From Escherichia coli (GTDB lineage: Bacteria > Pseudomonadota > Gammaproteobacteria > Enterobacterales > Enterobacteriaceae): 64,000 nucleotides of DNA. The notes beneath the pieces were generated by a model. It did not search any database. It was not told the DNA's origin and saw only the letters and a program-made list of their open reading frames with translations. Every line of letters begins with the position of its first letter. The first letter of the stretch is position 1. Shown here piece by piece: positions 4,386-5,832 of this stretch. The stretch lies in NCBI RefSeq assembly GCF_009931435.1, contig NZ_CP043414.1; one strand, given 5' to 3'. A program made the position numbers and the translations under genes.

Positions 4386-4844
4386 TTATCTGGCAAGCAT
4401 ACGTTGTTGATGCTGTTTCACAACACGTAAACGTAAGCTGTCATAGGCCCAATTGTAGAACATGGTATATGGTAGAAAGAAAAGGAAGAATCCTATCTCT
4501 AGTGTAAAAGCCTGTAACAGACTGACGCTCAGAATCCAGGACACCATAATGACGCCGATCGCGATAAATCCACTTTCAAAGCCCAAAGCATGGAATGCAC
4601 GAACTTTTGCAGTTCGTTTTACCTGATGAGCAGGCCAGTAGCGATCAAATAGCATGTTATAGATGATATTCCAGATCATTGCAGTTGAAGCCAACAAGAT
4701 AGTCATCCCGCCCATTTCGAGTATAGTTCGCTGCATTAACCATGCTGTGGTGGGGGCCAGAATCGCAGTGGCAATTCCTTCAAAGCAAATAGCGTGAAAA
4801 ATACGCTCAAGTAACGATCTGTGTTGAATCGCATTATGTTGCAT
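4386..4844 (-). CDS. PACE-family (AceI-like) small multidrug/biocide efflux protein
   Basis: 152-aa ORF with four TM helices carrying the duplicated motifs: RIFHAICFEG, MIWNIIYNMLFD, RAFHALGFESG, YTMFYNWAYD. Confidence 0.7.
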   Translation of the reverse strand: MQHNAIQHRSLLERIFHAICFEGIATAILAPTTAWLMQRTILEMGGMTILLASTAMIWNIIYNMLFDRYWPAHQVKRTAKVRAFHALGFESGFIAIGVIMVSWILSVSLLQAFTLEIGFFLFFLPYTMFYNWAYDSLRLRVVKQHQQRMLAR

Positions 4845-4947
4845 AACTTACCTTTCTTACAGTTTCGACCGCGTTATGGAGTTGTGAGATTTTTATCGAT
4901 TTATGTGATATATAAAAGATAGATACCATCGAAAAAATTGATAGATT

Positions 4948-5832
4948 ATGCGTTACTCACTTGAAGCGTTAAGTACATTTGTTGAAGTGGTTTCCTGTGG
5001 CTCCTTTTCTGCTGCGGCACGAAGATTACGTAAAAGTCAGTCCGCAGTCAGTACGTCAATTGCCAATCTTGAGGTCGATCTTGGTATAACATTATTCGAT
5101 CGCTCTTCGCGAGAACCTGTGCTGACAGAGGAAGGAAAGAAAGTATTGAGTTACGTTCATGCGATTTTATCAGCCAGTGAACGTCTTGAGGAGGTGGCGG
5201 TTTCGCTTGCCGGAGAGACTGAAGCTCGTCTGACGTTTGTGCTTTCCGATACCCTACACCCTGACTTATTAGAAGACATCATGGTGCAGTTTGATAGTCA
5301 GTTTCCACATACTGAGTTAGAGGTTTTAATTGGTGAGGATGTCGATGTCATCGATCTTTTGCAAAAAGAACGAGCGCAGATCGGCTTAATTGAGTCTCGG
5401 GAACACTACCCCACCGATATTGGCTCAACCCGTTTACCGATGCAAGCGTGGATGGGCATTTATGTTTCGGCGTCACATCCACTGTCTGCAGAAAAAACAA
5501 TCCAGCGGGAACAACTTCATTCATGGCGAGAACTTCGTCTTAATACTTATATCGATAACCGGGAGATGATTGCCCGTGGACCGGTTTGGTCTGCACCTAA
5601 CTATTTGTTGTTACTCAGTATGGCCGTACAGGGATTTGGCTGGTGCTCTCTGCCCTGTGCTCTGGTTGAGGAGTTTGCAACAGAAAAACCGCTGGTTCAG
5701 CTCGACGTACCTGGCTGGCCAAAGGCAATTTCTATCGATCTGCTTTGGAATAAAAAATCGCCACCAGGCGCGGCTGGAAATTGGCTTAAGCATCATTTAC
5801 AGCATATCAATGCCCCAAATAGTCGAACTTAG
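4948..5832 (+). CDS. LysR-family transcriptional regulator, divergent from the PACE gene
   Basis: 294-aa ORF; N-terminal HTH FVEVVSCGSFSAAARRLRKSQSAVSTSIANLE typical of LysR regulators. Confidence 0.8.
   Translation: MRYSLEALSTFVEVVSCGSFSAAARRLRKSQSAVSTSIANLEVDLGITLFDRSSREPVLTEEGKKVLSYVHAILSASERLEEVAVSLAGETEARLTFVLSDTLHPDLLEDIMVQFDSQFPHTELEVLIGEDVDVIDLLQKERAQIGLIESREHYPTDIGSTRLPMQAWMGIYVSASHPLSAEKTIQREQLHSWRELRLNTYIDNREMIARGPVWSAPNYLLLLSMAVQGFGWCSLPCALVEEFATEKPLVQLDVPGWPKAISIDLLWNKKSPPGAAGNWLKHHLQHINAPNSRT

Follow-up and report, generated by a model that had tools for sequence, protein, structure and literature searches.

In a stretch of 64,000 nt from Escherichia coli (contig NZ_CP043414.1; hereafter the window), a gene for a PACE-family transporter lies next to a divergently transcribed gene for a LysR-type regulator. 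We consider it probable that this locus represents an efflux cassette, self-contained and regulated, which was the cargo of a lambda-like temperate phage and survives in a 3.7-kb remnant of an IntS/TorI-type prophage at argW. The pair as such is already known, since it is annotated in RefSeq and rare, phage-flanked PACE genes of E. coli have been published (PMC4406071, PMC6195760, PMC5840245, PMC4337561). The only addition to the known picture is that the vehicle can now be named.

The Locus Encodes a PACE-Family Transporter and a Divergent LysR-Type Regulator

The gene at 4386..4844 on the minus strand encodes a protein of 152 aa, for which a reading of the sequence alone had proposed four TM helices and membership of the PACE family. 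Both proposals were borne out. The BTP domain of Pfam (PF05232) was matched twice with high significance (residues 9-71, E 2.2e-22; residues 77-140, E 2.1e-21), and the scores exceeded the cut-offs of both curated PACE models of NCBIfam (NF033665 PACE_efflu_PCE, 205.6 bits with a cut-off of 165; NF033664 PACE_transport, 169.8 bits with a cut-off of 80). The hydropathy profile contained four hydrophobic segments, and the first half of the protein could be aligned with the second, as expected for an internal duplication. All four motifs named in the sequence-only reading were located: RIFHAICFEG at residues 14-23, MIWNIIYNMLFD at 56-67, RAFHALGFESG at 82-92 and YTMFYNWAYD at 126-135.

The conserved glutamate in TM1 of AceI is E15. 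The corresponding TM1 glutamate of the window protein, E22, lies within the FEG motif and was invariant in orthologs from five genera, in which D67, H85, E90 and E116 were also kept. With a constant offset of 16, these five residues align with E38, D83, H101, E106 and D132 of PA2880, which are reported as functional residues of that protein (PMC9045395). The gene was intact in all 13 copies that we examined. When the PDB was searched with the pump sequence, no structure of a PACE protein was retrieved, the sole match having an E value of 0.96.

The divergent gene (4948..5832, plus strand) was found where the sequence-only reading had placed it and encodes a complete LysR-type regulator of 294 aa with an HTH_1 domain (PF00126, residues 5-64) and a LysR_substrate domain (PF03466, residues 89-285). 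Its top NCBIfam family was AceR (NF052373), and its top match in the PDB was 8j4n (E 1e-32), the DNA-binding domain of which is identical, in the alignment, to the domain in chains designated AceR. The pair had been likened to aceI/aceR of Acinetobacter; the A. baumannii system likewise consists of a PACE pump and a divergently transcribed LysR-type activator. This likeness held for the arrangement but not for orthology: the pump reached 93 bits with the AceI equivalog model NF033663 (cut-off 180) and the regulator 130 bits with the AceR model (cut-off 500). We concluded that the 152-aa product is a member of the PACE family and not an AceI ortholog, and that AceR is the nearest characterised relative of the regulator but not its ortholog. 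The two systems also differ in their genomic status, as AceI is a core protein in Acinetobacter and the window pair is phage cargo.

The Divergent Control Region Contains Two Conserved Dyads

The two start codons are separated by 103 bp (4845..4947), in which not a single SNP was present among the 13 copies examined; the LysR-proximal half was kept in five genera. The sequence-only reading had pointed to a T-N11-A-like dyad in this region, TATCGATTTATGTGATA. It is present at 4894..4910 (dyad A). The bare T-N11-A pattern is uninformative here, since it occurs 16 times in the 103 AT-rich bp, but dyad A also conforms to the stricter pattern ATC-N9-GAT (4895-4909). This pattern was found twice in the spacer versus 18 times in the whole 64 kb; when the spacer was shuffled 200,000 times, only 85 of the resulting sequences had two or more occurrences. 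The second occurrence, dyad B (ATCGAAAAAATTGAT, 4928..4942), had been missed in the sequence-only reading and is better conserved than dyad A. An exact ATC-N9-GAT was present at its distance from the LysR ATG in 5/5 genera; dyad A was exact in Salmonella and Enterobacter, had one mismatch in Klebsiella and N8 spacing in Serratia. Upstream distances from the PACE and LysR start codons (ATG) to the dyad centre are 58 bp and 46 bp for dyad A, and 91 bp and 13 bp for dyad B, respectively. The dyads are 33 bp apart, and their positions at -13 and -46 from the LysR ATG were the same across the five genera. These T-N11-A-type LTTR dyads in the shared control region are significant against shuffled sequences and conserved in position, and they are putative binding sites.

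A scan of the spacer for the sigma-70 consensus found no promoter with at least 9/12 matches, and the sole match on the minus strand (4972-4945) was on the LysR start. By eye, a weak -35/-10 pair for the pump gene could be recognized (TTTATA-17-AAAAAT, only 8/12).

AceR activates aceI, and two operator sites for it are located upstream of the pump promoter (PMC5961012), which is comparable to the two dyads in the spacer, although the operators themselves differ, being of the AGAACAACTTCT type for AceR and ATC-N9-GAT for the window pair. In line with what is known of LTTRs, a tetramer of the LysR protein may take dyad B as the primary site for recognition and for autoregulation, a role suggested by the overlap of this dyad with the leader of the regulator gene. 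The same tetramer would contact dyad A as the activation site beside the weak -35/-10 of the pump gene, and a build-up of substrate would make it turn the pump on.

Alternatively, the LysR protein might be encoded by the phage mainly in order to regulate other genes of the host or of the phage itself; it would then act in lysogenic conversion through transcription and have the pump as a minor target. LysR-like proteins do form a PHROG family (phrog_3736), no PHROG family was matched by PACE proteins, and LTTRs often have regulons. However, the divergent layout and both dyads are kept at non-phage chromosomal loci of four other genera, as is classically seen for regulators that act locally, and every PACE pump studied is paired with such a divergent LysR partner (PMC4406071). 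We therefore regard a wider regulon as the main role of the regulator as very unlikely and favour local control of the pump.

The Pair Is Phage Cargo within a Prophage Remnant at argW

The pair had been described as part of a tRNA island. An element at a tRNA gene was indeed found, and it can be specified as a prophage remnant. The gene argW for tRNA-Arg(CCT) is located at 6969-7043 on the minus strand, and its 3' end is overlapped by the proximal att repeat at 6963-6988 (feature 6963..7043, minus strand). The distal repeat on the attR side (3285..3310), which copies the 3' end of the tRNA gene plus 6 nt, is a 26-nt direct repeat of 6963-6988 with 92% identity. Many strains, WL297 among them, have an empty argW site; the alignment to the WL297 site breaks at 3305 and restarts at 6963, with a 21-bp overlap. 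Next to the distal repeat, an ORF of 66 aa (3379..3579, minus strand) encodes TorI, an excisionase of the KplE1/CPS-53 type and TorR inhibitor, and the identical gene is annotated as torI in strains 2013C-4282 and Rb-50. At the argW end a fragment of an intS integrase pseudogene remains (6325..6807, minus strand, with a 104-aa ORF fragment at 6322-6636), which in strain 2013C-4282 (99.8% identical) has the annotation 'prophage integrase IntS, internal stop, incomplete'. Next to it is a 3' fragment of a phage dATP/dGTP pyrophosphohydrolase / DUF551 gene (6041..6330, minus strand), also annotated as a pseudogene in 2013C-4282. Homology to the prophages of Rb-50, VCSW7 and CUPF12 stops at 6330, and the joint of a deletion in the prophage is at about 6325-6330. 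The element at argW, bounded by repeats of 21-26 nt, carrying an intS pseudogene and torI and having an empty counterpart in WL297, is what a deletion has left, over 3.7 kb, of a lambdoid prophage of the IntS/TorI type (KplE1-like).

Within this remnant, the cargo proper could be delimited to 1.72 kb (4318..6040), which are missing from lambdoid prophages that are homologous in other parts. Two prophages without the pair, L016 and L017, both cease to match the window at 4317; homology restarts at 6041 for L016, in which about 35 bp take the place of the cassette, and at 6196 for L017. Against the CUPF12 prophage, the boundaries are 4317/6041. No repeats and no microhomology were found at the cassette junctions examined. 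The genes flanking the cassette belong to PHROG families and are directly joined in the pair-less prophages. On one side they include two lambdoid backbone genes of unassigned function (3704-4048, 114 aa, phrog_1229, E 2e-51; 4076-4243, 55 aa, phrog_676, E 2e-38; both minus strand), and the backbone flanks were matched in 3012 E. coli genomes, most of them without the pair. The GC content of the cassette is 44.2% versus 50.5% for the window.

Downstream of the PACE gene, in the shared phage backbone, there are two tandem hairpins resembling intrinsic terminators (4263..4313, minus strand; scan matches at 4313-4294 and 4282-4263), the first of which had a folding energy of -14.9 kcal/mol (z = -3.2). 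The cassette thus has its own regulator and control region, with terminator-like hairpins downstream and no promoter at the scan threshold. Positioned between conserved backbone genes and precisely absent from sibling phages, the pair is placed like a phage moron. It resembles known lambdoid morons (emrE in DLP12-type prophages, lom/bor), which are small self-contained host-benefit units between backbone genes, in that sibling phages lack it and terminator-like hairpins come after it. Unlike emrE, lom and bor, it belongs to the PACE family and brings a dedicated LysR regulator.

The Cassette Is Rare and Carried by Lambda-Like Prophages at Different Sites

Among the 5426 complete genomes of E. 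coli that were searched, the pair was found in only 13 (0.24%). That it could be ancestral core DNA at the argW position, and not acquired, has practically no probability left: its chromosomal location speaks for this and nothing further, whereas the low frequency, the precise empty site with its att repeat and the occurrence of the same cassette at four different att sites all speak against it. Together with the pair-less prophages with joined flanks, these findings led us to reject the core-gene reading, and the earlier view of the pair as cargo was upheld.

The cassette was found in lambda-like prophages at no fewer than four att sites, namely argW, beside torS, thrW and lambda attB. Rb-50 has a near-complete lambdoid prophage of 46.5 kb at argW, which also carries emrE, a porin gene and lom. 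In VCSW7 the cassette is in a lambda-like prophage beside torS; further copies are at thrW, including thrW/IS3 contexts, and a copy of E. albertii is at ybhC, the lambda attB. A PACE gene with 99% identity was present on four viral contigs of IMG/VR. Searches of 50,697 phage records at the DNA and protein level found no bona fide phage record with a PACE gene. The matches obtained were mislabelled bacterial contigs, one from a Salmonella chromosome and others, up to 378 kb long, recorded as 'Acinetobacter phage MD-2021a', and they lend no support from the side of isolated phages. Mobile plasmid carriage was also rejected, as plasmid matches were either large replicons resembling chromosomes or pieces of chromosome with the native yqeG-yqeF surroundings; the cassette was absent from plasmids and integrons. 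Most carrier prophages are decayed by IS elements, deletions and pseudogenes, so that present-day transfer by infectious particles stays a candidate only.

Related Pairs Are Core Genes between yqeG and yqeF in Other Enterobacteria

In Salmonella and Klebsiella, a homologous pair is located between the genes for an amino acid permease and an acetyl-CoA acetyltransferase (yqeG-yqeF); for the Enterobacter pair the acetyltransferase side is kept. In 5421 E. coli genomes, yqeG adjoins yqeF, the pair is absent and the span is 1.43 kb shorter. The nearest homologs outside Escherichia were from Salmonella and Citrobacter (80-83% identical). With respect to the Salmonella pair, amino acid identity was 82% for the pump and 77% for the regulator. 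The pumps of the group formed by Salmonella STY3166 / STM14_3648, Klebsiella KPK_0842 and Enterobacter Entcl_2273 belong to the same PACE_efflu_PCE subfamily and have the same length. The enterobacterial yqeG-yqeF pairs share the divergent layout, a spacer of 101-103 bp and both ATC-N9-GAT dyads at the same positions. In contrast to the window copy, which is AT-shifted and in phage DNA of a species that lacks the copy at the native locus, they are core chromosomal genes. The cassette has 44% GC versus 52-62% in the chromosomal homologs. dN values versus the relatives (Salmonella, Klebsiella, Enterobacter) were 0.11-0.15; only dN is given, without dN/dS, since synonymous sites are saturated.

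The cassette would thus descend from the enterobacterial pair at yqeG-yqeF that E. coli lost, and it was probably long resident in AT-richer phage genomes: the saturated synonymous sites and the shifted GC content suggest old phage residence rather than recent capture. This bears on another explanation, according to which the pair was selected recently for biocide resistance, owes its spread to the use of disinfectants and acts mainly as a chlorhexidine/quaternary-ammonium-compound pump like AceI of Acinetobacter. The NCBI name 'multidrug/biocide efflux PACE transporter' fits such a role, an E. coli homolog is listed for acriflavine and weak chlorhexidine resistance (PMC5840245, PMC4337561), and several carriers are human clinical isolates. 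However, soil, leaf-litter and water isolates are also among the carriers, the protein is under the AceI equivalog cut-off, plasmids and integrons lack the cassette, the reported effects are small, and the indications of old phage residence do not agree with recent capture. We consider this explanation improbable compared to an old phage cargo.

Predicted Function of the Pump

By analogy with what is known of PACE proteins, the pump may work as a dimer that couples the export of cationic amines to protons. Its likely substrates would be short-chain diamines (cadaverine and putrescine) and, weakly, cationic biocides like chlorhexidine and acriflavine; diamines are PACE substrates according to Hassan 2019 as cited in PMC9972920 and PMC9045395. 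A close case on record is ECTW07793_0407 of E. coli TW07793 (EII93401; Hassan et al. 2015), an accessory E. coli PACE protein in which the essential glutamate is numbered E22, like the TM1 glutamate of the window protein. Its gene is reportedly flanked by transposase and phage sequences (PMC5840245), matching the thrW/IS3 contexts of the cassette, and it is grouped with STY3166 and KPK_0842 in a table of PMC4337561. The likeness consists in the E22 numbering and in the phage/transposase flanks, and ECTW07793_0407 may be a different allele, because four different rare PACE clusters exist in E. coli (PMC4406071). With ECTW07793_0407 the MIC of chlorhexidine was 0.39-0.78 versus 0.195-0.39 ug/ml and that of acriflavine 6.25 versus 3.125; with STY3166, the ortholog from Salmonella, no resistance was obtained (PMC4337561). 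All MIC effects of ECTW07793_0407 were thus at most 2-fold.

Such small effects, or none for STY3166, would also be expected if the pair were an inert passenger, an intact-looking but silent leftover that hitch-hikes in decaying prophages without an efflux benefit to the host. The degraded state of most carrier prophages and the low frequency of the pair among genomes are in line with this. On the other hand, neither the ORFs nor the spacer had indels or stops in any of the 13 copies examined, even inside shredded prophages, the operator dyads are conserved, and the catalytic glutamate and the other acidic residues of the pump are intact. The low dN together with saturated dS argues for long-term purifying selection. 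An inert passenger is therefore unlikely in our view, and a working efflux cassette is the reading that we prefer.

Significance

As a rule, PACE pumps are encoded by core genes, and PACE studies make use of E. coli as a host free of such pumps. We tentatively propose, at somewhat less than even probability, that lambda-like temperate phages move a complete, self-regulated PACE cassette, the phage-adapted descendant of the yqeG-yqeF pair, through E. coli and E. albertii. If this is true, a PACE gene would for the first time be recognised as a moron of phages. The importance is modest and no new kind of system is revealed. With about 0.2% of E. coli and some E. albertii carrying a regulated PACE cassette, a concrete route for its horizontal spread can be named. 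Carrier strains could confound heterologous PACE assays as well as biocide or diamine phenotypes. If the cassette is active, lysogeny would alter the tolerance to diamines or cationic biocides. With its pump, regulator and two-dyad operator, the cassette is a compact natural model of 1.7 kb for the control of a PACE pump by an LTTR in a tractable host.

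The Pump and Its Divergent Regulator

ORF calling placed the 152 aa pump gene at 4386..4844 (minus strand) and the 294 aa regulator gene at 4948..5832 (plus strand), 103 bp apart and exactly where the sequence-only reading had put them. The pump contains all four motifs quoted in that reading and has four hydrophobic segments (residues ~15-37, 41-63, 84-105, and 108-129), and its N- and C-terminal halves can be aligned with each other. The assignment to the PACE family was confirmed: the Pfam BTP domain was matched twice (E 2e-22 and 2e-21), and the curated NCBIfam cut-offs were exceeded for the PACE subfamily (169.8; cut-off 80) and PACE_efflu_PCE (205.6; cut-off 165). 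The neighbor is indeed a LysR-type protein with HTH_1 and LysR_substrate domains. The proposed likeness to aceI/aceR held in so far as AceR was the top named NCBIfam family for the regulator, but the cut-offs were missed both for AceR (130 bits vs. 500) and, by far, for the AceI equivalog (93 vs. 180). The closest solved relative of the regulator is PDB 8j4n (E 1e-32), whose DNA-binding domain aligns identically to that of chains deposited as AceR.

Pumps of the PACE family work as dimers; they are small, proton-coupled exporters that depend on a glutamate in TM1 (E15 in AceI, E38 in PA2880). The counterpart in the pump is E22, and D67, H85, E90, and E116 correspond at constant offset to the other functional residues of PA2880 (PMC9045395).

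Both ORFs were open and free of indels in all 13 copies compared, three of them from E. albertii and some lying within heavily decayed prophages. The only substitutions were H8R or M149I in the pump and R2H, V14A, T48S, D253N, or P273T in the regulator; residue 48 of the regulator varies, and T48 is private to the window.

Two Dyads in the Spacer

The T-N11-A-like dyad of the sequence-only reading, TATCGATTTATGTGATA, is present at 4894-4910. The bare T-N11-A pattern is uninformative, since it occurs 16 times in the AT-rich spacer, but the stricter ATC-N9-GAT proved meaningful. The whole 64-kb window has 18 occurrences, about the number expected by chance, and two of these lie inside the 103-bp spacer, at 4895-4909 (dyad A) and 4928-4942 (dyad B). 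When the spacer was shuffled 200,000 times, only 85 shuffles reached two or more. In an alignment of the spacer with its counterparts from the homologous Salmonella, Enterobacter, Klebsiella, and Serratia pairs, conservation was limited to the regulator-proximal half, which contains both dyads. Their centers lie at -46 (A) and -13 (B) from the regulator ATG in every one of the five genera. All five have an exact ATC-N9-GAT at dyad B; dyad A is exact in three, with one mismatch in Klebsiella and N8 spacing in Serratia. The spacer carried no SNP among the 13 copies compared.

LysR-type regulators classically use a strongly conserved distal recognition site and a looser activation site nearer the target (PMC5961012). 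The two dyads, 33 bp or three helical turns apart, match this layout. On the pump strand, inspection by eye showed that dyad A fills exactly the 17-bp gap between TTTATA and AAAAAT (TAAAAT in Salmonella). Since these elements match in only 8/12 positions and a promoter scan of the spacer found nothing convincing, we can only infer that they form the pump promoter.

The argW Island Is a Prophage Remnant

The "tRNA island" of the sequence-only reading is linked to argW, a tRNA-Arg(CCT) gene (6969-7043, minus strand), and has a corresponding empty site; it was refined to a deletion remnant of a lambdoid prophage that carries a phage cargo cassette. In strain WL297, which has the empty site, window 1-3305 and 6963-9000 match with a 21-bp overlap, which together with a 26-nt direct repeat (3285-3310 and 6963-6988) delimits an island of ~3.68 kb. 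It comprises, in this order, torI (3379-3579), two phage genes without assigned function (matching phrog_1229 and phrog_676), tandem terminator-like hairpins, the pair, a fragment of a phage dATP/dGTP pyrophosphohydrolase/DUF551 gene, and an intS pseudogene. In strain Rb-50 the segment from torI to the regulator is as in the window and extends into a near-complete 46.5-kb lambdoid prophage that terminates with an intact intS adjoining argW. Homology to Rb-50 ends at 6330, and the window therefore holds a deletion remnant of an Rb-50-type prophage.

An exact 16-nt second copy of an internal part of the tRNA-Arg gene, GGAATCGAACCTGCAA (6983-6998), lies at 3599-3614 within the island, just past torI; 313 bp separate it from the att-core repeat. 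An older integration that overlapped more of the tRNA may have left it behind, or it may belong to the IntS/TorI att module. Prophages at other att sites become homologous to the window directly after it, at ~3617-3626.

The att-proximal chromosome is itself variable: where dsdC and dsdX are found in Rb-50 and K-12-like strains, window 1-2855 has the csc genes for sucrose (cscA, cscK, and cscB) next to the argW att site. A 399 aa ORF of 33-38% GC (9282-10481, minus strand) between mlaA and fadL had no NCBIfam match and looks like a separate small insertion; it is hypothetical in 2013C-4282 and WL297 and missing from Rb-50, where mlaA adjoins fadL. Two clusters of naRNA4/CssrE (Rfam RF02564; 29567-29833 and 42678-42930), each of three tandem units above the gathering score, represent REP/BIME-type arrays that have no connection with the pair.

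The Cassette Is Cargo of Lambdoid Prophages

The view that the pair is cargo rather than core was borne out. By megablast, it was found in only 13 of 5426 complete E. coli genomes, always chromosomal and at least 99.5% identical, while the phage flanks of the cassette occurred in 3012 genomes. These flanks are directly joined in the pair-less prophages of strains CUPF12 and 2024CK-00475. Homology to these prophages stops at 4317 and restarts at 6041, with ~35 unrelated bp between, which defines a cassette of 1.72 kb (4318-6040).

The carrier prophages differ in their integration module. The cassette lies at argW with IntS/TorI in the window, Rb-50, 2013C-4282, R32_14_1F, RMDEC465, and 24A16CRGN010, beside torS in a lambda-like prophage of VCSW7 (with N, cI, cro, O, P, nin, Q, lysis, head, and tail genes), at thrW adjoining an IS3 element in 2015C-4136CT1 and Z1323PEC0014, and at ybhC (lambda attB) in E. 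albertii. The integrase and IS3 arrangement of the thrW carriers recurs in SC477. A 99% identical pump gene was present on four IMG/VR viral contigs. No PACE gene was found in a bona fide isolated-phage record among 50,697, and PACE proteins matched no PHROG family. "Phage" PACE matches in an INPHARED-derived collection (AGRM01000002.1, CAKLQF020000001.1, and others) were rejected as large bacterial contigs with chromosomal PACE genes; the misfiled records include a 691-kb Salmonella houtenae contig and "Acinetobacter phage MD-2021a" contigs of up to 378 kb.

Besides the cassette, the Rb-50 argW prophage contains a porin gene, lom, and emrE. As emrE encodes an SMR efflux pump, one prophage holds two unrelated small efflux pumps. 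In the VCSW7 prophage (NZ_CP082357.1, ~2,847,200-2,858,700) the major capsid gene is interrupted by an ~11.5-kb insert encoding an integrase, a primase, an Icd-like protein, SSB, its own major capsid and decoration proteins, and an abortive-infection protein. The insert is apparently a satellite-like element that has entered the capsid gene of its helper prophage.

Window 1-9000 had an identical match in no complete RefSeq E. coli genome. Strain 2013C-4282 has the same remnant structure (99.8% over 9 kb), whereas the cassette allele is nearest (1 SNP) to those of Rb-50 and VCSW7, which sit in different prophage contexts. These sequence matches hint at recombination between prophages.

Origin of the Pair

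Salmonella and Klebsiella carry a homologous divergent pair flanked by an amino acid permease gene and an acetyl-CoA acetyltransferase gene, upstream of kduI and kduD; Enterobacter has kept the acetyltransferase side of this context. In 5421 E. coli genomes these two flanking genes (yqeG and yqeF) are adjacent and their span is 1.43 kb shorter, showing that the native pair is absent from E. coli. The nearest non-Escherichia pumps, from Salmonella and Citrobacter, are 80-83% identical, and no pump homologs were found between 83% and 99% identity. Compared to Salmonella, amino acid identity is 82% for the pump and 77% for the regulator, with dN of 0.11 and 0.15, respectively, and saturated synonymous sites. 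The GC content of the cassette is 44%, vs. 52% in Salmonella, 58% in Enterobacter, and 62% in Klebsiella. The identity gap, the saturated synonymous sites, and the GC shift led us to reject a recent capture from a sampled species. Together with the dN values, they argue that the phage copy is most probably an old, AT-shifted, selectively maintained descendant of the pair at the enterobacterial yqeG-yqeF locus.

Discussion

The observation of the sequence-only reading was confirmed and its interpretation supported, with refinements. It is correct yet already known from RefSeq annotation and the literature on E. coli PACE genes: the RefSeq product names are "multidrug/biocide efflux PACE transporter" and "LysR family transcriptional regulator", and hundreds of contigs carry an identical pump sequence. 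Cloned ECTW07793_0407, an accessory PACE protein of E. coli TW07793 (EII93401), caused small MIC increases for chlorhexidine and acriflavine (PMC4337561). It is a candidate match to the window's pump, as the E22 numbering, the ~0.2% frequency, and the IS3/phage context all fit.

AceR, on ligand binding, activates aceI via two upstream sites (PMC5961012). PMC9972920, citing Hassan 2019, reports short-chain diamines as physiological PACE substrates and lists the Salmonella ortholog as a putative cadaverine/putrescine pump. Beyond the established family assignments, architecture, and conserved operator, the remaining mechanism follows from family knowledge: the pump would be a diamine exporter with weak action on cationic biocides, and its gene would be switched on by the LysR regulator.

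The vehicle of E. coli PACE genes was called unresolved in PMC6195760. Our analysis adds the exact boundaries of the cassette, identifies lambda-like prophages at four or more att sites as the vehicle, and contributes a predicted two-dyad operator and the native yqeG-yqeF locus as the probable evolutionary source.
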